Assembly (NCBI GenBank): GCA_017964105.1
Contig: JAGCSP010000003.1
Location: forward strand, 1 to 31,020
Direction of reading: 5' to 3'
From: Clostridia bacterium
GTDB taxonomy: Bacteria > Bacillota > Clostridia > Christensenellales > UBA1242
DNA length: 31,020 nucleotides
Numbering within the stretch: position 1 is the first letter of the stretch; each line of letters starts with the position of its first letter. The notes below the pieces were generated by a model. It was not told the DNA's origin, did not search any database, and worked only from the letters and a program-made list of their open reading frames with translations. Of this stretch, positions 13,916 to 24,039 are shown piece after piece. Made by a program: the position numbers and the translations under genes.

Positions 13916-13942
13916 AAGACACATTTTATATGTGTCTTTTTT
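13916..13942 (+). terminator. Intrinsic terminator after the synthetase gene
   Basis: AAGACACAT-TTTAT-ATGTGTCTT followed by a T-tract. Confidence 0.8.
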
Positions 13943-14019
13943 GTGCTGTGTAAAATCATTTTGATAAGTTTAGTTTATGTGGTAAGATAGTACGTAGAGT
14001 TTATAACTTAAGGTGTAAA

Positions 14020-14757
14020 ATGAGACTAATAGATGAAATACAGTGCGGAAACATTATTTGTGGCGTAGCAAAAAATAAGGTAGACATTGAAGCTGCCGAA
14101 AAATTACGCTATGATATGCTTCTTATGGATTTTAATACAGAAAATACAAATACTAATGCTACAGATAAAAGTGAATATGATGATATCTGTGAGCATTTGA
14201 TTGCAATAGATACCGACACAAACGAAGTGGTTGGTACTTATAGAGTGCTAGCTAGCAACAAATTGCCAAAAGGTAAAATGTGGGTAACTGAGCATGAGTT
14301 TGATATTTCAAATTTAAGAAATTGTGGCGAAGGTATTGTGGAATTATCTAGGGCAGTAGTGCATACTGATTATCGTAATGGTTCAGTTATCAAAATGCTT
14401 TGGAAGGCATTATTTAACTACGCAGTAAAATATAATATTAGGTACTTGTTTGGTACAGCAAGTTATCATGGGGTAGATAAATCAAAGTACACCAACTCAT
14501 TTGCTTGGTTAAATGATAAATATTTAGTTGATGATGCTTTATCTTGCTCACCAATTGAACACACTGTTGCATTTGGCAATAGTTATGATTTGGAAAAGGC
14601 AAAAGATGAAACACCATCGCTTATCAAAGGATATCTTGCTATGGGCTCCAAGGTAACCAAAGGCGCATACATTGACTACGAGTTTGGTAGCATTGATGTG
14701 CTTACCATATTAGATTTGAAAAATGTAAGTAGGGTATTTGAGAGAATTATAAAATGA
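14020..14757 (+). CDS. OlsB-like GNAT N-acyltransferase (Acetyltransf_5; ornithine/amino-lipid synthase-like)
   Basis: LRY, D.YD..CEHL, VGTYR, EFD, ELSRAVVH..YR.G, LW, LFGTAS, P.LIKGYL..G and D.EFG..DV follow the OlsB pattern. Confidence 0.8.
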   Translation: MRLIDEIQCGNIICGVAKNKVDIEAAEKLRYDMLLMDFNTENTNTNATDKSEYDDICEHLIAIDTDTNEVVGTYRVLASNKLPKGKMWVTEHEFDISNLRNCGEGIVELSRAVVHTDYRNGSVIKMLWKALFNYAVKYNIRYLFGTASYHGVDKSKYTNSFAWLNDKYLVDDALSCSPIEHTVAFGNSYDLEKAKDETPSLIKGYLAMGSKVTKGAYIDYEFGSIDVLTILDLKNVSRVFERIIK

Positions 14758-16673
14758 AATACAACAAAAAGAAATTATACTTAATAATTCCAATAGTGCT
14801 ATTTTTGGGATTGCTTGCAATATTCATAAAAGATATTATTCAAATGCTCCCACTAATTAAAAACGCAGATGAAGAAAGTGTTCGTGCAGCGCTTAGCACA
14901 CTTGGGCCAAAAGGTGCAATTGTGATAGGTTGCATTGTGGCTGTGCAATTACTCATAGTATTTATGCCATGCGAATTTATGGAAATTATGAGTGGTGTGG
15001 CATATGGTCCATGGTGGGGCACACTAATTTGCCTAACTGGAGTAATAGTTGGTGCAAGCTTGATATATGCACTAATTAACGTGTTTAATGTCAAATTAGA
15101 GGTACTTTTTGCCAAAAGCAAAAGTTATGAAACAATTTCAAAATTGTCACGAAGTACAAAATCAATAGGTAAATTATTACTTATACTATTTTTCTTGCCT
15201 GCAATTCCACTTGGTGTAATATGTTATTTTGGTTCCACCACAAACCTAAAATATCATTGGTACATTCTAATAACTGCAATTGGTGCATTGCCAAGTATTG
15301 TTATTGATACTGTTCTTGGTCATGTGTTTGTGGCAGCAATTGGCAAGTACTTTTGGTGGATACTAATAGCAGTTGTGTTATTTGCAGTGATTGCAATGTG
15401 GCTTGTAAAACTCTACACAACAAAGAAAATGAATATTGCACTATATGGCACAAAAAACCCAACGGTAGATATGGTGCTAGATAATCATAAACCAAGCTCA
15501 CCAAAGGTAACACATATTTGGTTCTTAACAAGAGTGGCAAGACACCTAAAACGCAAATATAATGTAAAAGTAAATAATGAAGAAACAAAAAATCTAAAAG
15601 ATCCTTTTATTGTACTTAGTCCACATGGGTGTTGGGCAGATTTCTTGCTAACATTCCTTGCAATCAAACCTTACAAAACGCACATCATGATGAATGCATA
15701 TTACTTGTACAATAAAAAGACTCAGGGAATACTTCTTGATACAGGCGTAATTCCTAAAAAAATGTTTGCTAATGACTTAAAATCAATCAAAGATTGTATG
15801 GCTGTAGTAAAAAATGGTGAAAGCATTCTTATGATGCCAGAAGCACGACTAAGTATTGATGGAGCAAATCAACCATTTGCACATGGCCTTGGCAAACTTA
15901 TAAAGAAATTAAACATACCAGTAATTACAATTGAATCTCATGGCGCATACTTATCTATGGCAAAGTGGGTGGAAACAAAACGCAAAGGTGCAATTGAAAT
16001 TACCACACATTTAACCTTGACCCCAGAAAAGATACAAGAACTAAGTGCAGACGAAATTGATGATATTTGCGCAAAAGCACTTGCATTTAATGATTTTGAA
16101 TGGGTAAAAGATTCGCCATATGTGTTTAAGGGCAAAAACATGCTAGAAGGCGCAGAAAACCTAATATACAAGTGTCCAAAATGTGGTCATGAATATACTC
16201 TAATTGCAGATAAAAACACAATTACATGTACACACTGCGGTTTGCAAGTGAGTATGAATGGAAAGTATCAATTTATCAATCCATATGGCAATATTCACAA
16301 CTTGCAAGATTGGTATAAGTACCAAAGAGTAGAAGCACAAAAGGTATATGATAGTGGCAACTTCAAATTGGAAACAGAAGTGGTTTTGAAAACATATGAC
16401 GACTATGGTAAAGGTATAGTGCCAGTTGGCGAAGGAAAGTGCGTGCTAGATAAAGATGGCTTGCGTTATGATGGCACATTCAAAGGCGAAGAGCATCATT
16501 TAGCTATACCTGCCCACGCAATGCAAGCATTGCCATTTGGTTGCGGTGAAGATTTTGAAACGTATTGGGATAATATCTTTTATTATTTTGTTCCAAAAGA
16601 AAATAAAGCACAATGCGTGCAATGGGGAATATATAGCGACATTATGATACAAAATGCTAAAAAAGATGAATAG
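14754..16673 (+). CDS. Fusion protein: VTT/DedA (TVP38-like) membrane domain + PlsC-type acyltransferase + zinc ribbon
   Basis: N-terminal VTT pattern (P.E...I.SG..YGPWWG...G...GA.L.Y). HX4D motif (HGCWAD) and PEARLS block. CPKC...CTHC zinc ribbon. Confidence 0.8.
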   Translation: MKYNKKKLYLIIPIVLFLGLLAIFIKDIIQMLPLIKNADEESVRAALSTLGPKGAIVIGCIVAVQLLIVFMPCEFMEIMSGVAYGPWWGTLICLTGVIVGASLIYALINVFNVKLEVLFAKSKSYETISKLSRSTKSIGKLLLILFFLPAIPLGVICYFGSTTNLKYHWYILITAIGALPSIVIDTVLGHVFVAAIGKYFWWILIAVVLFAVIAMWLVKLYTTKKMNIALYGTKNPTVDMVLDNHKPSSPKVTHIWFLTRVARHLKRKYNVKVNNEETKNLKDPFIVLSPHGCWADFLLTFLAIKPYKTHIMMNAYYLYNKKTQGILLDTGVIPKKMFANDLKSIKDCMAVVKNGESILMMPEARLSIDGANQPFAHGLGKLIKKLNIPVITIESHGAYLSMAKWVETKRKGAIEITTHLTLTPEKIQELSADEIDDICAKALAFNDFEWVKDSPYVFKGKNMLEGAENLIYKCPKCGHEYTLIADKNTITCTHCGLQVSMNGKYQFINPYGNIHNLQDWYKYQRVEAQKVYDSGNFKLETEVVLKTYDDYGKGIVPVGEGKCVLDKDGLRYDGTFKGEEHHLAIPAHAMQALPFGCGEDFETYWDNIFYYFVPKENKAQCVQWGIYSDIMIQNAKKDE

Positions 16674-16694
16674 TTCATACTATTCATTTTTTTT
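16666..16694 (+). terminator. Intrinsic terminator
   Basis: ATGAATAG-TTCATA-CTATTCAT followed by a T-tract. Confidence 0.65.
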
Positions 16695-16775
16695 GTAAAA
16701 TTAGTAGATATATTTGCTAAATAAATTGCATAATGATATAATATGGTATAACTTAAATTTAAGGAGATGAATCAC

Positions 16776-16997
16776 ATGGCAGCAAAAAAGGATTATTTTG
16801 GTTTAGAGTGGATTGTTAGCTTAATTCTTGCTATTATCCCATTCACATCATGGATCTGTGGTGCTTTGACAAGATTCCAAGAGGGCAAACTTGTAGCAGG
16901 TATTATTCGTTTGTTCTTTGGTTTCACAATAATCTGGGTTCTAGATTTAGTATTCATGATTACACAACACCAAATCTGCAGACTTCTAAATGTTTAA
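16776..16997 (+). CDS. Small hydrophobic membrane protein (73 aa), function unknown
   Basis: AAGGAG SD 9 nt before ATG 16776. Own promoter (TTGCTA-17-TATAAT at 16714-16742) and terminator. Two hydrophobic segments. Confidence 0.8.
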   Translation: MAAKKDYFGLEWIVSLILAIIPFTSWICGALTRFQEGKLVAGIIRLFFGFTIIWVLDLVFMITQHQICRLLNV

Positions 16998-17007
16998 TTT
17001 AGTAAGC

Positions 17008-17039
17008 AAAAAAGCACACCGATAGGGTGTGTTTTTTTT
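17008..17039 (+). terminator. Intrinsic terminator
   Basis: AAAAAAGCACACC-GATAG-GGTGTGTTTTTTTT. Confidence 0.8.
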
Positions 17040-17142: not shown

Positions 17143-19392
17143 ATGGATAATTTTGTAAATTGGATAATGAGTCACAATACACTTTTGTATAGCATATTCT
17201 TTGGAATTATGCTTATTTTTGCTTGTGTGTTTATTGTGAGATATTACGTAACAAACAAAAGTAATTTGTCGGCAAAACAAATTGTGCCACTAGTAATTAC
17301 GCTTGTGCTATTTGCATATAGCTTCGAGCAAATTTCTTGGGGCCATTTTTACAAATTGCTTGGCTTCAATATGTTTACATTCTATTTCTTGCTAGCATTT
17401 TTGTATTACGACAAAATTAGCAAACGCAAAATTACAAATATTGCATTCTGGTTTTTGTTGCTATCATCCATTTTAACATTTATTCTTGGATTTATTCCAG
17501 TATTTGAACAATATTTCTGGTATGGGGCAGAACACAGATTTGCAGGCATTGTGGGTAATCCAAACACACTTCAATTTTGTGTGGCTGTTACTTTGGCTGC
17601 AACACTCACAATATTCTTTAAAGGTGGCATGGGCAGAGTGGAAATGTACTTTAAGTGCTTAACCCTTGCAGGCATTGGCCTACTCACCAAATCAAAAACC
17701 TTTATGGTGATATTTGTGTTACTACTACTTACATATCTAATTTTTGAATTCATTTACCATGCAAAAGTTGCTGCTATTGAGCTTGGCACAATACTAGTGG
17801 TATTTGGCGTGATATATCTCATTTGGGGTAGAGTAATTATAGATTCACTACTTTCTAGATTGTACCTTGACGACACCACATCATTTATCAATGGCATCAC
17901 ATCAGATAGATGGGAATTGTGGGGCAAGTACTTGGGTTCTTGGACAGAAGATACATGGGCACTACTATTTGGCCAAGGATTTAGTTCGCCAGACTTTATA
18001 TATGGTGGCACTCACAACGACTATATCTTTGTGCTATACAACCTTGGCATTATTGGTGGTGTGCTTGTGCTTGGTCTTGGCATATCATACATTGTGGCAT
18101 GCAAGGATAAATTCAAAAATTTCCGCATTTGGAACTTGGTGCCAGTAATTACAATAATTGCAATTTCTTGCACAGAGAATTTGCTAATTCGTGCATTCTC
18201 ACTGCTTAGTGTATTTTGCTTTATGTTCTTGCTTGATAGCGAGAATTACAAAAAGGTGTTTAAAAAATTAAGTGATAGCAAAGTAATGCTAATTTGCACA
18301 ACCGACAATATGATTTGGCAATTTTTATTGCCACATATCAAGGATATGCAAGACGCAGGTGCAGATGTGCATTTGGTTTGCCATAAAACGGGGTTCTGGT
18401 TTGACGAATTAAAAGATATGGGATTTACCATGCACAATATCAATATGAAACGCAATCCTGTAAATCTTACAAACATAATTGCATATTTCAAGTTGTGCAA
18501 GTTACAACGCAAAGAAAAATATGACCTTGTATATTGCCAGCAACCAGTTGGTGGAATGCTTGGCAGATTAGTTGGAGCAAGATTCCGCTTGCCAGTGATA
18601 TACACAGCACATGGATTATTCTTTTACAAGGGTAATAGTAAACTAAAAAATTTTGTGTATAGGTCTGCTGAACGCGTGCTTGCAAGTAGCACAGATGTAT
18701 TCATCACAATGAATGATGAAGATTATAATGCCACAATCAAGTGGCCACCAAAGTTTAAATACAAAATTCATGGCATTGGAATGAATCCAGATAAATATGA
18801 AAAAACAAAATTTATCAAAAATCAATTAAGACAACAGCTTGGCCTTAATGATGGAGATAGATTGGTGATATCTATTGGTGAATTTAGAGGCGTAAAAAAT
18901 TATCCAACCATGGCAAAAGTGATGCAAAAAGTTATGCAAAGTGAACCAGACGTAAAATGGTTAATTTGTGGTACTGGTGCAGATAAGCAAGACATAGAAA
19001 ATCTTGTAGCAGAGTTGGGAATAAAAGACAATGTGAAATTCCTAGGATATCGCAAAGACGTTGATAGAATTGTGCGCATTAGTGATATTATGCTTCACTC
19101 ATCATATCGTGAGGGGCTTACAATGAGTATTATGGAAGTAATGCATTTTGGTCTTCCGGTAGTAACCACAACTTCGCGTGGTAACAAAGATTTAATTGTG
19201 GATGGCGAGGGTGGATTTACTCTTGACCCATTTGATGTGGATGCGCAAAGCGAAGCAGTGATTAAGTTACTAAATAATCCAACGCTCAGAACAAAAATGG
19301 GCAACTTCAATAAACAAGAAGTAAAGAAATACTATTTAGATAATGTTCAAAGCGAACTAAAACAAATATATAAGGATTGTGATTTACTATGA
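17143..19392 (+). CDS. Fusion protein: O-antigen ligase/Wzy_C-like membrane domain + GT4 glycosyltransferase
   Basis: N-terminal ~365 aa is multi-TM with RFAGIVGNPN and HNDY. C-terminal GT-B/GT4 domain with SYREGL...IMEVM..GLPVV. Confidence 0.8.
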   Translation: MDNFVNWIMSHNTLLYSIFFGIMLIFACVFIVRYYVTNKSNLSAKQIVPLVITLVLFAYSFEQISWGHFYKLLGFNMFTFYFLLAFLYYDKISKRKITNIAFWFLLLSSILTFILGFIPVFEQYFWYGAEHRFAGIVGNPNTLQFCVAVTLAATLTIFFKGGMGRVEMYFKCLTLAGIGLLTKSKTFMVIFVLLLLTYLIFEFIYHAKVAAIELGTILVVFGVIYLIWGRVIIDSLLSRLYLDDTTSFINGITSDRWELWGKYLGSWTEDTWALLFGQGFSSPDFIYGGTHNDYIFVLYNLGIIGGVLVLGLGISYIVACKDKFKNFRIWNLVPVITIIAISCTENLLIRAFSLLSVFCFMFLLDSENYKKVFKKLSDSKVMLICTTDNMIWQFLLPHIKDMQDAGADVHLVCHKTGFWFDELKDMGFTMHNINMKRNPVNLTNIIAYFKLCKLQRKEKYDLVYCQQPVGGMLGRLVGARFRLPVIYTAHGLFFYKGNSKLKNFVYRSAERVLASSTDVFITMNDEDYNATIKWPPKFKYKIHGIGMNPDKYEKTKFIKNQLRQQLGLNDGDRLVISIGEFRGVKNYPTMAKVMQKVMQSEPDVKWLICGTGADKQDIENLVAELGIKDNVKFLGYRKDVDRIVRISDIMLHSSYREGLTMSIMEVMHFGLPVVTTTSRGNKDLIVDGEGGFTLDPFDVDAQSEAVIKLLNNPTLRTKMGNFNKQEVKKYYLDNVQSELKQIYKDCDLL

Positions 19393-20534
19393 TTATATAC
19401 TACTTATTATTTGTTATAATTTTGCTTTGTGGATTGTATTCCATTTATGTTAATACAAATGAATATGATAACACATACCATTCAAAAAGTGTTTTAAGAT
19501 TAGTATGTGACAAATTATTTAAGGATTATTTATTTGTCGTACTATTGTTAATTGTCTTTGGTGCATACAGAGGTTTTAGAGTTGGATTAGACAATCCAAT
19601 GTATCTTAGTTACTATCATGCACTTGAAGATAATTTTGCAGCAAACTGGTCACTATATGGATTTGAATTTGGTTATAGGGTAATCAATGCTTTTGCTTAT
19701 GGATTAAATATTGGTTATTTTGGTGTGCAACTTATTTGCACAACAATTATTGTATTGTCGTTTTATAGATTTATTAATACATTTTCACTAAATAAAACAA
19801 TTTCTTGGCTTTTGTTCTTGTGCCTTGGAATATATGCACAATCACTTTGTATAGTAAGGCAAATGCTTGCACTAAGTTTTGTTTTGCATGCAATCATAAG
19901 TTTATACAACAAAAAGTATTTTAGATATGTTATCTACACAATTATTGCTGTGTTATTTCACAAATCTGCGTTAATTACACTTGTGTATTTGCCACTAGCA
20001 TTTATACCTTTAAGTGAAATTAGTGTAGCAATATATACAGCTTGCGCAACACTTGTATCTGTTACATTTATTCCATTATTCAAGCTATTTGTAAAAATAT
20101 TTGATTCAAGGTATGCTTATTACATATTTGGTGACATTGGTGAATTTAATACACCTGTTAGTTTGCCAGATATGTTATTTACAATAGGTATGTTGGTACT
20201 ATTTATTGTTGTATTTCTATTTAAAGATAAATTATCAAAAACAGATCAACTAAACAATAACAAATTCTTAACATTATTTTTGTTTGTACCACTCATTAGA
20301 ATGTTTGGTGCATACATTCAATTTCCAACATTATCACAAAGAATTACACCTTATTTCTTCTTTTCAATAATTGTGATAGTACCATATTATTTAAAACTAA
20401 TTAAAGAAAAATATACCAAGTGGTATGTGCCCGCACTAGTTGTTACTATTGCCGGTGCGCTTGTGTACATGTACTTCTTGTACGCAGTAAAAGTAAGTTG
20501 TGGCGTTGTGCCATATAATTTTGAAATATTATAG
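19389..20534 (+). CDS. EpsG family polysaccharide polymerase (Wzy)
   Basis: R...GLDNPMY, EFGY, IVRQMLA and FHKSA motifs; ~10 hydrophobic segments. Confidence 0.85.
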   Translation: MIIYYLLFVIILLCGLYSIYVNTNEYDNTYHSKSVLRLVCDKLFKDYLFVVLLLIVFGAYRGFRVGLDNPMYLSYYHALEDNFAANWSLYGFEFGYRVINAFAYGLNIGYFGVQLICTTIIVLSFYRFINTFSLNKTISWLLFLCLGIYAQSLCIVRQMLALSFVLHAIISLYNKKYFRYVIYTIIAVLFHKSALITLVYLPLAFIPLSEISVAIYTACATLVSVTFIPLFKLFVKIFDSRYAYYIFGDIGEFNTPVSLPDMLFTIGMLVLFIVVFLFKDKLSKTDQLNNNKFLTLFLFVPLIRMFGAYIQFPTLSQRITPYFFFSIIVIVPYYLKLIKEKYTKWYVPALVVTIAGALVYMYFLYAVKVSCGVVPYNFEIL

Positions 20535-20542
20535 GAGAAAAA

Positions 20543-21262
20543 ATGATACCAAAGATTATTCACTACATTTGGCTAGGTAAAGGTGAAACACCGAAGGTGT
20601 TTGACAAGTGCCTTGCCTCATGGAAGAAATATTGCCCAGATTGGGAAATCAAGCGCTGGGATGAAAGTAATCTTAATATAGACTTGTGCCCATACGTACG
20701 CGAAGCATACGATGCACGCAAATTTGCATTTGCTTCTGACGTATTGCGCCTAGATGTGCTCAATCGCTTTGGTGGAGTATATTTAGATATAGATGTGGAA
20801 CTACTAAAACCCATTGACGAGTTTTTGGATGAGTACGCATTCACTGGCTTTGAAACAAGTGGCTTAATTGCGCCAGGACTAATTCTTGCATGCGAAAAAG
20901 AAAATTTGGATTTTGTAGCAATATTAAACAGTTACAAGTCTCGTCACTTTTTGGTGGACGGAGTGCAAGACACAAAAACCATTTGCCAAACATTTACAGA
21001 GTATTATGAGAAATTTGGTCTAAAAGCAGAGAATATAACTCAAAAAGTAAACAATTTTACTGTGTATGCTAGTGAATATTTTAGTCCATATGATGTAATA
21101 ACAAACAAAAAGAAAATAACATCTAAAACATATTCAATCCATTGGTATAATGCTAGTTGGTATACACCATGGCAAAAGTTTAAACGTGGTTGCAAAAAAT
21201 GCTTAAACTTTGTTTCATTTGGATTGTTTGGTAAAGTGTTACAAAAGGTAAGAAAGAAATAA
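20543..21262 (+). CDS. GT32 (Gly_transf_sug/OCH1-like) glycosyltransferase
   Basis: MIPKIIHYIW, FAFASD..R, GGVYLDIDVE (DxD) and YSIHW motifs. Confidence 0.9.
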   Translation: MIPKIIHYIWLGKGETPKVFDKCLASWKKYCPDWEIKRWDESNLNIDLCPYVREAYDARKFAFASDVLRLDVLNRFGGVYLDIDVELLKPIDEFLDEYAFTGFETSGLIAPGLILACEKENLDFVAILNSYKSRHFLVDGVQDTKTICQTFTEYYEKFGLKAENITQKVNNFTVYASEYFSPYDVITNKKKITSKTYSIHWYNASWYTPWQKFKRGCKKCLNFVSFGLFGKVLQKVRKK

Positions 21263-21469
21263 ATGAAAGATTTAATATCAGTCATTGTACCAGTGTACAA
21301 TGTAGAGAAATATCTTAATAGATGTGTAGATAGTATTTTAAACCAAACATACACAAATTTGGAAGTAATACTAGTGGATGATGGCAGCCCTGATGGCTGT
21401 CCTGCCATTTGCGATGCATACGCCAAGAAAGATAAACGTGTGAAAGTAATACATAAAGCAAATGGAGGG
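21263..21469 (+). repeat. Direct repeat copy 1 (5' 207 nt of GT2 gene)
   Basis: Manual codon comparison with 22262-22468 gives 23 mismatches in 207 nt (~89%) and 67/69 identical amino acids. Confidence 0.85.
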
Positions 21470-22249
21470 GTAAGCGATGCACGTAATATGGGCATTGATT
21501 CAAGCAAATCGGAATATTTAACATTTGTTGATAGTGATGATTGGCTTGAAAAAGATTATATTCAAACTTTAAGCAATTATGTGGATGCTGCGGATTATGT
21601 ATGCTGTGGGCTTACTTGCTGGCTAAATAATACTGGCAACAACTTTGATAATATTATTAGTGGAATTAAAGTAAATAAGAAAAATAACACTGTTATTCGC
21701 AAATGCAAAAAGTTTAGTGGGAACATGGAAAAACAAACAAAAAACTATTTTCGCGCATTTGAAAAAGCAGTAGTGCTTGGGCCAATGTCTAAAATTTATA
21801 AAAAATCTTTAATTACTACTAATTTTATCGTTGGTAGAAAGAAGGGCGAAGATGTGCTATTTAACGTTGCATATTTGAAAAATTGTAAAACAATTTGTAA
21901 TATAGATTATGCTGGCTATAATTATGAGTGCAGAAATGAAAATTCAGCAATACATACAATAAAATTACAAAGTAAAGACGATGATGAGTTTATTGCGGGT
22001 ATACAATCTTTGGCGGATGTGTTTGGCACAAAAGCAAACAAGTATATCAATTCATTTGTTGTGATTGATGCTTTTAAAACTATGTGTGCAGATAATATAG
22101 TGTTAGCATACAAGGATTATTATGCTGCAAACAAGCAAATTATCAAAAATTCAAAAGCAATATTGCTTAAAAATAAAATTTTGCTTTATCTAATAAAGCA
22201 TAGGCACTTTAAATTACTTGCAAAATTAGTAAGACGTAAATTTTCGTAA
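21263..22249 (+). CDS. GT2 family glycosyltransferase
   Basis: ISVIVPVYNVEKYL..C, VDDGSPD, NGGVS.ARN and FVDSDD. Confidence 0.92.
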   Translation: MKDLISVIVPVYNVEKYLNRCVDSILNQTYTNLEVILVDDGSPDGCPAICDAYAKKDKRVKVIHKANGGVSDARNMGIDSSKSEYLTFVDSDDWLEKDYIQTLSNYVDAADYVCCGLTCWLNNTGNNFDNIISGIKVNKKNNTVIRKCKKFSGNMEKQTKNYFRAFEKAVVLGPMSKIYKKSLITTNFIVGRKKGEDVLFNVAYLKNCKTICNIDYAGYNYECRNENSAIHTIKLQSKDDDEFIAGIQSLADVFGTKANKYINSFVVIDAFKTMCADNIVLAYKDYYAANKQIIKNSKAILLKNKILLYLIKHRHFKLLAKLVRRKFS

Positions 22250-22261
22250 AAAGGAAATAAA

Positions 22262-22468
22262 ATGAAAGATTTAATATCAGTCATTGTACCTGTGTACAAT
22301 GTAGAGAAATATCTTAATAGATGTGTAGATAGTATACTTGCCCAAACATACACAAATTTGGAAGTGATACTAGTAGACGATGGCAGTCCAGATGGCTGTC
22401 CTGCTATTTGTGATGCGTATGTAAAGAAAGATAAACGTGTGAAAGTTATTCACAAGGCGAATGGTGGG
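22262..22468 (+). repeat. Direct repeat copy 2 (5' 207 nt of GT2 gene)
   Basis: Partner of 21263-21469, offset by 999 nt. Confidence 0.85.
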
Positions 22469-23194
22469 CAAGGTACCGCACGCAATGCAGGTCTTGATAT
22501 TGCAAAAGGGGATTATATTTCGCTTATTGATTCTGATGATTGGATAGAAAAAGATTTTATTAAAATATTGCATAATTACATTATAAATAATGATGCCGAT
22601 TTAGTTATTTGTAATTATAATGAAGTTAATGAACAAGATCAAATTATAAAACACAGCAATTTACAATATAAAGTATACAAATCAAATAAGTTTGATTTAT
22701 TATTTAATCAAATTGATACTGTACCAGTTATTGTTCCATGGAATAAGTTGTATAAAAAATCCGTGTTTAGCAATTTAAGATATGCTGATACTAGAATATA
22801 TGAAGATGAAGGTATTGCATATCAACTAATTAATAATTGCAAAAAAATAATTGTTGTTAATGATGTTCTTAATAATTATATGATAAGAAGTGGTAGCACC
22901 ATGGATAAGTCGTTGGTGAATGAGCGAATGTTAGGTGTTATTAAAATAATGGAAGAAAGATTAAATTATGTGAAGAATACAGAGTATGAACAATCTGCCA
23001 CAAAAATGTTTTTGTATTCTATATTTTTATCATACATGCGCGTTTACAAAGATAAAGAATTGCGTAATTTAGTATATAAAATTTTTATTGATAATTATAA
23101 ATTTGTAAAAAAATTACCAGTTAAGGATAGATTTAAATATAAAATGTTTAGATTATTTCCTAAAATTATTGTAAATATTAAAAGGAGTCGATGA
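22262..23194 (+). CDS. GT2 family glycosyltransferase
   Basis: Same N-terminal GT2 motifs, plus LIDSDD, PWNKLYK and YEDE. Confidence 0.92.
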   Translation: MKDLISVIVPVYNVEKYLNRCVDSILAQTYTNLEVILVDDGSPDGCPAICDAYVKKDKRVKVIHKANGGQGTARNAGLDIAKGDYISLIDSDDWIEKDFIKILHNYIINNDADLVICNYNEVNEQDQIIKHSNLQYKVYKSNKFDLLFNQIDTVPVIVPWNKLYKKSVFSNLRYADTRIYEDEGIAYQLINNCKKIIVVNDVLNNYMIRSGSTMDKSLVNERMLGVIKIMEERLNYVKNTEYEQSATKMFLYSIFLSYMRVYKDKELRNLVYKIFIDNYKFVKKLPVKDRFKYKMFRLFPKIIVNIKRSR

Positions 23195-24039
23195 TGAATA
23201 TTTTAATGTGCATAAATAATGGTTATGTACACCCAGCGATTAATTTAATGTATTCAATAAGACAGTATACTGAATGTGATATTGATTTGTTTATATTATC
23301 CACTGGTTTAAATGATAATAGTCTAAACGAATTGCAAAAAAAATTAGAAGCAATATCAATCAATGTACATACTTATATATCTAAGGATATTGATATGGAA
23401 CTCAATATAGGAAATAATCATTATAGTGTTGATATGTTTTTAAGGATATTGTCCTTTGGTATTTTACCTAAAAATATTGAAAAGATATTATATTTAGATG
23501 CAGATATTATAGCTTTAGATAATATAGAATTGTTGTATAATCAAAATTTGGGCAATAAACTCCTAGGCGTAGTTGAGGATATAAAAGGAAGTTCAAACAA
23601 AAATGCTGAATATATAAAAACAATAAATATTCAACATAAGTATTTTAATTCCGGTGTAATGCTAATGAATCTATCTGCCATTAGAAAAGAGTGGGATATT
23701 AAAAAAATTAAAGATTACATTTTTCATAATTCTTCAAAGTATAGATATCCAGATCAAGACATGTTAAATGTTTTATGTTCTAATAAGCAATTACAATTTT
23801 TAGATATAAAATTTAATTATCAAATAAGACACAATGAAAGCATAGATATAGATAATGTTGTCATATTACATTATGTGGACAGATTAAAACCTTGGAATGT
23901 TTTTATTATTAAACCTCACGAAAAACTATTTTGGGAAAATTATAAGCTTATAAAATCAAAAGAATTATATCGAATTAGAAAATGTTTTTTAAAGAAAAGA
24001 TTGATTGGAAAGATTAGAAAAGTATTACATTTAAAGTAA
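23191..24039 (+). CDS. GT8 family glycosyltransferase
   Basis: RIL, KILYLDADII, YFNSGVMLMNL, PDQD.LN and ILHY...KPW. Confidence 0.92.
   Translation: MMNILMCINNGYVHPAINLMYSIRQYTECDIDLFILSTGLNDNSLNELQKKLEAISINVHTYISKDIDMELNIGNNHYSVDMFLRILSFGILPKNIEKILYLDADIIALDNIELLYNQNLGNKLLGVVEDIKGSSNKNAEYIKTINIQHKYFNSGVMLMNLSAIRKEWDIKKIKDYIFHNSSKYRYPDQDMLNVLCSNKQLQFLDIKFNYQIRHNESIDIDNVVILHYVDRLKPWNVFIIKPHEKLFWENYKLIKSKELYRIRKCFLKKRLIGKIRKVLHLK

Follow-up and report, generated by a model that had tools for sequence, protein, structure and literature searches.

An OlsB-type N-acyltransferase gene coupled to a VTT/DedA-acyltransferase fusion in Clostridia: a candidate locus for an amino-acid lipid

A 31,020-nucleotide (nt) stretch of DNA from a Clostridia bacterium (contig JAGCSP010000003.1, assembly GCA_017964105.1; here the window) carries two overlapping open reading frames, of which the first (ORF A) encodes an OlsB-like N-acyltransferase and the second (ORF B) joins a VTT/DedA membrane domain to a PlsC-type acyltransferase, a zinc ribbon and a PH-like domain. 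The domains are present with their motifs intact, the two genes are coupled, and the linkage of the three components, the OlsB-like protein, the acyltransferase and the VTT domain, is conserved among related genomes in four different arrangements. The reading we favour, at about even odds, is that the pair uses scavenged fatty acids to build an amino-acid lipid with two chains, a product predicted from the genes alone. In the route proposed, exogenous fatty acid would enter as acyl-acyl carrier protein (acyl-ACP) through FakA/FakB and PlsX, and ORF A would draw on acyl-ACP to N-acylate an amino acid, for which ornithine or some other basic one is the likeliest. In ORF B the PlsC-type domain, which is predicted to be cytoplasmic and bears the HX4D motif, would then place a second acyl chain on the lyso-intermediate, and the fused VTT/DedA domain would anchor the enzyme in the membrane and most likely hand the lipid, as product or as lyso-form, across the bilayer.

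The two genes and their proteins

Both frames are open in translation table 11 and share an ATGA overlap, and in this the translational coupling described in a first-pass annotation of the window is borne out. The genes and the domains of ORF B are placed as follows.

14020-14757, plus strand: ORF A, OlsB-like PF13444 N-acyltransferase of 245 amino acids (aa), having the fold of N-acyl amino acid synthases
14754-16673, plus strand: ORF B, VTT/DedA, PlsC-type acyltransferase, zinc ribbon and PH-like domain, 639 aa
14754-15458, plus strand: VTT/DedA membrane domain, about residues 1-235 (PF09335, helices of the AlphaFold2 (AF2) model, hydrophobic stretches)
15486-16088, plus strand: PlsC-type acyltransferase, about residues 245-445 (PF01553), with the HX4D residues H291 and D296 at nt 15624-15641
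16161-16253, plus strand: Cys4 zinc ribbon, about residues 470-500, its four cysteines invariant
16356-16670, plus strand: PH-like beta-sandwich and closing helix, about residues 535-639 (AF2 and Foldseek; no Pfam family)

ORF A matches PF13444 with an E value of 1.8e-23 (83.6 bits, cut-off 22.4), and the FeeM family PF21926 is matched as well. Its top NCBIfam models are two OlsB equivalogs (NF052554 with 171.4 bits, NF052555 with 140 bits), the GlsB and OlsF models giving weak matches (44 bits for the OlsF C-terminal half). The OlsB-pattern GNAT assigned at first pass is confirmed by the PF13444 match together with OlsB as the best family models. With the AF2 model of ORF A (predicted local distance difference test score, pLDDT, of 93) Foldseek returns GNAT proteins, the acyl-homoserine lactone synthases LasI, BjaI and TofI, and also FeeM, which synthesises N-acyl amino acids; a search of PDB sequences with ORF A gave no useful match. 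All 12 residues that are invariant among 30 homologues are kept. Judged by its sequence ORF A is an intact OlsB-type N-acyltransferase.

Within ORF B, residues 72-190 match VTT_dom PF09335 (56.8 bits, cut-off 33.9) and residues 271-393 the Acyltransferase family PF01553 (38.3 bits, cut-off 23), and zinc-ribbon Pfam models align at residues 472-502 with scores below their cut-offs. In an alignment of 50 homologues H291 and D296 of the HX4D motif, G370, the cysteines C474, C477, C492 and C495, and G561 never vary, the blocks IPK and PE(G/A)RLS (K335, P362, E363, S367) hardly do, and the VTT motifs are kept across the fusion proteins. The Pfam matches, the invariant HX4D and the four invariant cysteines thus uphold the reading of a VTT/DedA domain, an HX4D acyltransferase and a zinc ribbon in one protein. 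The fusion is no assembly artefact, because full-length VTT-acyltransferase proteins recur both in a library of 1.84 billion proteins, where they form some 45-50 representative clusters at 50% identity, and within the order, of whose 401 sampled genomes 14 encode one.

The AF2 model of ORF B has a pLDDT of 89.8, rising above 90 in the C-terminal domain, and the VTT domain is modelled with multiple helices and short re-entrant-like segments. Foldseek with the VTT domain gave no informative match, and no NCBIfam model matched this domain. Many lysines at its N-terminus and a KK that follows the final helix suggest, via the positive-inside rule, that this domain begins and ends in the cytoplasm and that the acyltransferase lies there too. 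The acyltransferase domain finds the Thermotoga maritima PlsC structure 5KYM both by a profile search of PDB sequences (E 1.2e-11) and by Foldseek (E 2.4e-5, target TM 0.64). The last 100 or so residues resemble PH, EVH1, RanBD and PTB domains in Foldseek (E about 0.03-0.1, probability 0.97-1.0, target TM at most 0.68).

Among NCBIfam models the acyltransferase domain is best matched by the Aas-type acyl-ACP:phospholipid O-acyltransferase PRK08633, at E 3.9e-8 and 31.5 bits (cut-off 1221), and the generic AGPAT model TIGR00530 gives 23 bits where 103 are required. ORF B belongs to a distinct acyltransferase, zinc-ribbon and PH-like family and is no OlsA orthologue. Casting ORF B as the OlsA of an ornithine-lipid pathway does not survive this, given the distinct family, NCBIfam matches of the Aas and AGPAT type only and far below cut-off, and a length of 639 aa.

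The zinc-ribbon and PH-like module on its own (ORF B residues 440-639, nt 16071-16670) is widespread although Pfam has no family for it: the ESM Atlas shows it in the fusions, in unfused acyltransferases of about 400 aa and in stand-alone proteins of about 250-270 aa, the last of these in Bacillota, Thermotogota and Spirochaetota clusters.

Conservation and rearrangement of the pair

OlsB-like genes are rare in this lineage, being found in 10 of 401 genomes of the order and 9 of 301 genomes of the family; none was found in 379 other genomes of the class, which also yielded no further architectures. Where they do occur, a member of the acyltransferase family adjoins them in 6 of the 10 genomes of the order sample and 7 of the 9 of the family sample (the genome from which the window comes, G000, is counted in both). 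Of the two exceptions in the family sample, one (G484) is cut by the contig end, and in the other (G664) the next gene encodes no acyltransferase and little of the contig is left beyond it. Relatedness among the genomes means that these counts do not come from independent samples. Four arrangements are seen:

OlsB-like gene, then fusion: G000, G007, G554, G520, G433
Fusion, then OlsB-like gene: G419
OlsB-like gene, then unfused acyltransferase, with no VTT: G150, G215, G233, G300
OlsB-like gene divergent from an unfused acyltransferase and a separate 282-aa VTT gene: G538, G605, G509

Intergenic gaps at six of the paired loci range from -17 to +33 nt. In a further genome, G345, a VTT gene of its own comes after an unfused acyltransferase, and the OlsB-like gene, with a DegV gene as neighbour, lies 210 kb away. 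When the acyltransferase region is placed in a tree, ORF B falls in a 15-row clade with an SH-aLRT (Shimodaira-Hasegawa-like approximate likelihood ratio test) support of 99, in which all five members of known context are paired with OlsB. Adjacency to OlsB is met in at least four separate lineages across the tree, and the unfused OlsB-paired acyltransferases branch from within the fused ones. A single inherited accident cannot account for four different architectures, and since VTT is a separate gene in the split arrangement, a Rosetta-stone argument can be made that VTT domain, acyltransferase and OlsB-like protein act together. Conservation of the neighbourhood, on which the first-pass annotation had staked its proposal, is thus found, in four forms.

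A conserved four-gene operon was considered as well and set aside, as in the group f42 the two genes 5' of the pair are replication genes of the dnaB/dnaI type, which reflects synteny and not function.

What the VTT domain does for the acyltransferase can be read in two ways from these arrangements. Flipping of lipid by this domain is plausible from its family, with genetic support from the split forms in G538, G605, G509 and G345. Alternatively VTT might be a membrane anchor or scaffold only, the lipid crossing by other means or staying in the inner leaflet, and the unfused relatives would rely on an amphipathic N-terminal helix instead. That VTT-less acyltransferases pair with OlsB in G150, G215, G233 and G300, and do so from within the fused forms of the tree, speaks for a VTT domain dispensable for the chemistry. 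A purely anchoring role leaves hard to explain why, in two families, a stand-alone VTT gene sits directly 3' of the acyltransferase gene, and the VTT motifs are conserved across the fusions; moreover the VTT/DedA proteins studied to date are lipid scramblases or flippases (PMC8386813). We therefore regard the anchor as an unlikely explanation.

Less probable still, and to our minds a long shot, is that ORF B serves the glycerolipid pathway as a paralogue of PlsC or GPAT, with lysophosphatidic acid or the precursor of a glycolipid as its substrate, and that ORF A is adjacent by chance. The nearest solved structure is indeed a PlsC, the generic AGPAT model is weakly matched and glycosyltransferase genes follow downstream. 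Against this stand the sporadic occurrence of the fusion (the 14 of 401 genomes given above), an OlsB adjacency that is conserved and has been re-invented, and the terminator and promoter lying between ORF B and the glycosyltransferase cluster. Further, G000 holds a canonical short PlsC on contig C44 (99.5 bits to PF01553, 239-aa frame) and yet another PF01553 protein besides this and ORF B. These two additional PF01553 genes also rule out ORF B as the sole or housekeeping PlsC of the cell.

Acyl supply, head group and fusions lacking OlsB

A clue to the head group comes from G433, in which an arginase-like gene (L086:6775-7713) heads the operon 4 nt 5' of the OlsB-like gene, which in turn overlaps the fusion by 1 nt. 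The encoded protein scores 175 bits with the rocF model (cut-off 228) and 47-54 bits with agmatinase models, and G000 has a homologue of it, 44% identical, on another contig. Such a gene would fit an ornithine head group. As to the acyl chains, in genus g219 a fakB(DegV)-plsX-fakA cluster abuts the split module of acyltransferase, VTT and OlsB-like genes (L087:275-3845 in G538, and also L088 and L089), which fits scavenged fatty acids as the acyl source. The host itself, G000, is a metagenome-assembled genome (MAG) of 0.79 Mb and 87% complete; a scan of public genomes gave one related locus, in a Clostridia MAG from water-buffalo rumen (reticulum).

A separate cluster in G484 (L090:70-3541) comprises a GT2 glycosyltransferase, a short PlsC-type acyltransferase and a CrtO-like acyltransferase, with the OlsB-like gene at the contig end, and may represent another lipid pathway using the same N-acyltransferase.

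A number of observations weigh against the synthesis of a two-chain aminolipid by the pair, and these concern in the first place the fatty acids. Neither the ketoacyl synthase PF00109 (FabF/FabB) nor the dehydratase family FabZ/FabA (PF07977) was found in eight genomes bearing the pair or the fusion (G000, G007, G015, G419, G215, G554, G520 and G433), six of which are at least 92% complete, and the positive controls were detected; type II fatty-acid synthesis (FASII) is thus absent. ACP, PlsX and four to five copies of DegV/FakB are present, and it appears from the gene content that these Clostridia of the rumen, with genomes of about 1 Mb, are fatty-acid auxotrophs that scavenge through Fak and PlsX. 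Oleate hydratase was likewise not found in the five genomes searched for it, G000 included. With no ketoacyl synthase, FabZ/FabA or oleate hydratase, 3-hydroxyacyl-ACP and its 3-hydroxyl group are therefore not made endogenously. The canonical OlsB uses 3-hydroxyacyl-ACP and OlsA esterifies the 3-hydroxyl (PMC12971839), and this scheme of a 3-hydroxyacyl amide followed by an ester on the 3-hydroxyl cannot run on endogenous substrates here. Because 3-hydroxyacyl-ACP is not made, any product is probably not the canonical 3-acyloxyacyl ornithine lipid and would be of non-canonical structure.

An endogenous source of hydroxy fatty acid was sought in the short-chain dehydrogenase/reductase encoded 3' of the fusion in G520 and G433 and was rejected, the enzyme being generic and followed by suf and radical-SAM genes.

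The remaining points on this side concern the partners. The two OlsB equivalog scores of ORF A are half or less of the cut-offs (171.4 against 350 and 140 against 320), and the arginase link, the sole clue to the head group that was found, comes from one genome. The acyltransferase family with zinc ribbon and PH-like domain is common, present in 165 of 401 genomes of the order (E at most 1e-25) and often in several copies, its unfused form being widespread without OlsB. The fusion, too, has a second context. Of 15 fully mapped fusion loci elsewhere (L003, L004, L052-L054, L056-L058 and L060-L066), 13 have the fusion followed by a YfcC-like transporter of the DcuC superfamily, often overlapping it, L004:3364-4830 being an example. 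No PF13444 gene was found in the five genomes with a YfcC-paired fusion that were tested, and because of this the fusion has an OlsB-independent function and is not solely an OlsA equivalent. A homologue of the YfcC-like transporter was not found in G000. In Clostridioides difficile YfcC lies behind a lysine riboswitch (PMC11477304), and it is possible, speculatively, that basic amino acids are a theme common to the YfcC and OlsB contexts.

It is here that a serious rival arises, in which the two proteins serve separate substrates. ORF A would make a single-chain N-acyl amino acid or amine (a signal, a surfactant or a lipoamino acid of the "hemolysin" type), and ORF B would salvage or repair lysolipids: VTT would move lysolipid from the outer to the inner leaflet and the acyltransferase would re-acylate it, drawing on scavenged fatty acid. 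Such a DedA-based counterpart to LplT-Aas would be useful to a rumen auxotroph. The Aas-type PRK08633 as best NCBIfam match agrees with this, as do hosts without FASII and the finding that the majority of fusions come from genomes lacking an OlsB homologue. LplT-Aas also works as a flippase-acyltransferase complex and is fused in some bacteria (PMC11416262), and the N-acyl synthases characterised from the human microbiome include makers of mono-acyl amides (PMC11271093). Salvage leaves unexplained why a rare OlsB-like gene adjoins the acyltransferase family in four arrangements, the genes overlapping or almost in contact, even where VTT is lacking, and the YfcC-like partner transports small solutes and not lysolipids. 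Taken whole, the assignment of separate substrates is possible and we judge it rather unlikely.

Two-chain aminolipid synthesis, as first proposed, hence stands in part: the conserved pairing, the intact motifs and the arginase clue are in its favour, and its canonical chemistry falls with the absence of FASII. The accompanying idea of a phosphorus-free replacement lipid is not supported here. In its most specific form the proposal would be a synthase-flippase machine of fatty-acid-auxotrophic rumen Clostridia, making an ornithine or lysine diacyl aminolipid independently of any 3-hydroxy fatty acid, with VTT as a dedicated flippase; the second chain might then be carried by the side-chain amine or by a scavenged hydroxy fatty acid. 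We put this full form forward only tentatively, as a doubtful one.

Known systems, significance and flanking sequence

The closest relatives of the pair in gene logic are OlsB/OlsA of Sinorhizobium, Rhodobacter and Brucella, with GlsB/GlsA and GluB as further relatives, in which a PF13444 gene and an HX4D gene of the PlsC superfamily are coupled in the same way (PMC12971839). OlsA is a single-domain protein of about 300 aa, whereas ORF B at 639 aa adds VTT, zinc ribbon and PH-like domains; and in contrast to the hosts of OlsB/OlsA the present one is a MAG of the monoderm Clostridia lineage without FASII, in which the 3-hydroxyacyl-ACP donor is missing. OlsF too brings N- and O-acyltransferase together in one system but fuses them to each other, whereas here each acyltransferase has its own gene and a membrane domain of transporter type is what the second is fused to. 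MprF, the aminoacyl-phosphatidylglycerol synthase and flippase, joins a cytoplasmic lipid-modifying enzyme to a membrane part by which an amino-acid-bearing lipid is moved to the outer leaflet, and uses aminoacyl-tRNA and phosphatidylglycerol. The likeness to MprF is one of shared logic only, by analogy, as no domains are homologous. UptA is a bacterial DedA flippase for undecaprenyl phosphate (C55-P), and TMEM41B/VMP1 are eukaryotic scramblases.

ORF B matches PF09335 above cut-off and so shares the domain of the DedA/VTT family, to which E. coli YqjA/YghB, UptA and TMEM41B/VMP1 belong (PMC8386813), with the difference that its domain is fused or adjacent to an acyltransferase, zinc-ribbon and PH-like module. 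In LplT-Aas a lipid transporter is likewise coupled or fused to an acyl-ACP-dependent acyltransferase of the PlsC superfamily (PMC11416262); LplT, however, belongs to the major facilitator superfamily and not to VTT, the domain order differs and the acyl-ACP synthetase domain of Aas is absent from ORF B. A literature search found no paper on a VTT/DedA-acyltransferase fusion, its full-text coverage being incomplete and so no proof of absence. A 2026 review notes OlsB homologues, so far unexplained, as all that is on record for Bacillota, where no aminolipid has been described (PMC12971839).

The locus thus provides a concrete, compact and expressible two-gene aminolipid candidate in Bacillota, and bears on the role of most bacterial DedA/VTT proteins, which is an open question. 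If the proposal is true, it would give the first defined lipid substrate besides C55-P for a bacterial DedA/VTT subfamily, and an MprF-like device assembled from unrelated parts that makes a new class of membrane lipid. Because the hosts are without fatty-acid synthesis, the chemistry would be forced to differ from that of textbook ornithine lipids, and might bring to light a new lipid structure in bacteria of rumen and gut that are abundant and uncultured.

The elements that flank and delimit the two genes are these:

13916-13938, plus strand: terminator-like hairpin with a 9-bp stem and T-run, which ends the upstream gene for a methionyl-tRNA synthetase-like protein (MetRS-like) and is the 5' boundary of the unit
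13961-13988, plus strand: promoter-like site TTGATA, 16 nt, TAAGAT with a TG extension, a consensus match only
14010-14015, plus strand: ribosome-binding site AAGGTG, read from the sequence, 4 nt 5' of the ORF A ATG
16660-16693, plus strand: likely intrinsic terminator, an A/U-rich hairpin with T-run (-13.6 kcal/mol, z -5.7)

Promoter-like consensus matches are no commoner here than in shuffled sequence. The terminator that the first-pass annotation gave to the pair is recovered as the hairpin with T-run at 16660-16693, which a GC-based terminator scan missed and a folding energy test flagged. ORF A and ORF B form a self-contained two-gene unit, because terminators bracket the pair and the next gene has its own promoter-like site and terminator.

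That next gene (16767-16997) encodes a two-helix membrane protein of 76 aa with no family match. It is preceded by a strong promoter-like site with a TG-extended TATAAT at 16714-16742 and followed by a GC-rich hairpin at 17015-17031, which was scored on the minus strand and has a T-run on the plus strand too. Beyond it runs the series of glycosyltransferase genes (17143-24039), an exopolysaccharide-type cluster with a GT4 enzyme, an EpsG-like polymerase, a DXD sugar transferase and two GT2 enzymes. In the composition profile the GC fraction is only 0.23 at 23001-24000.

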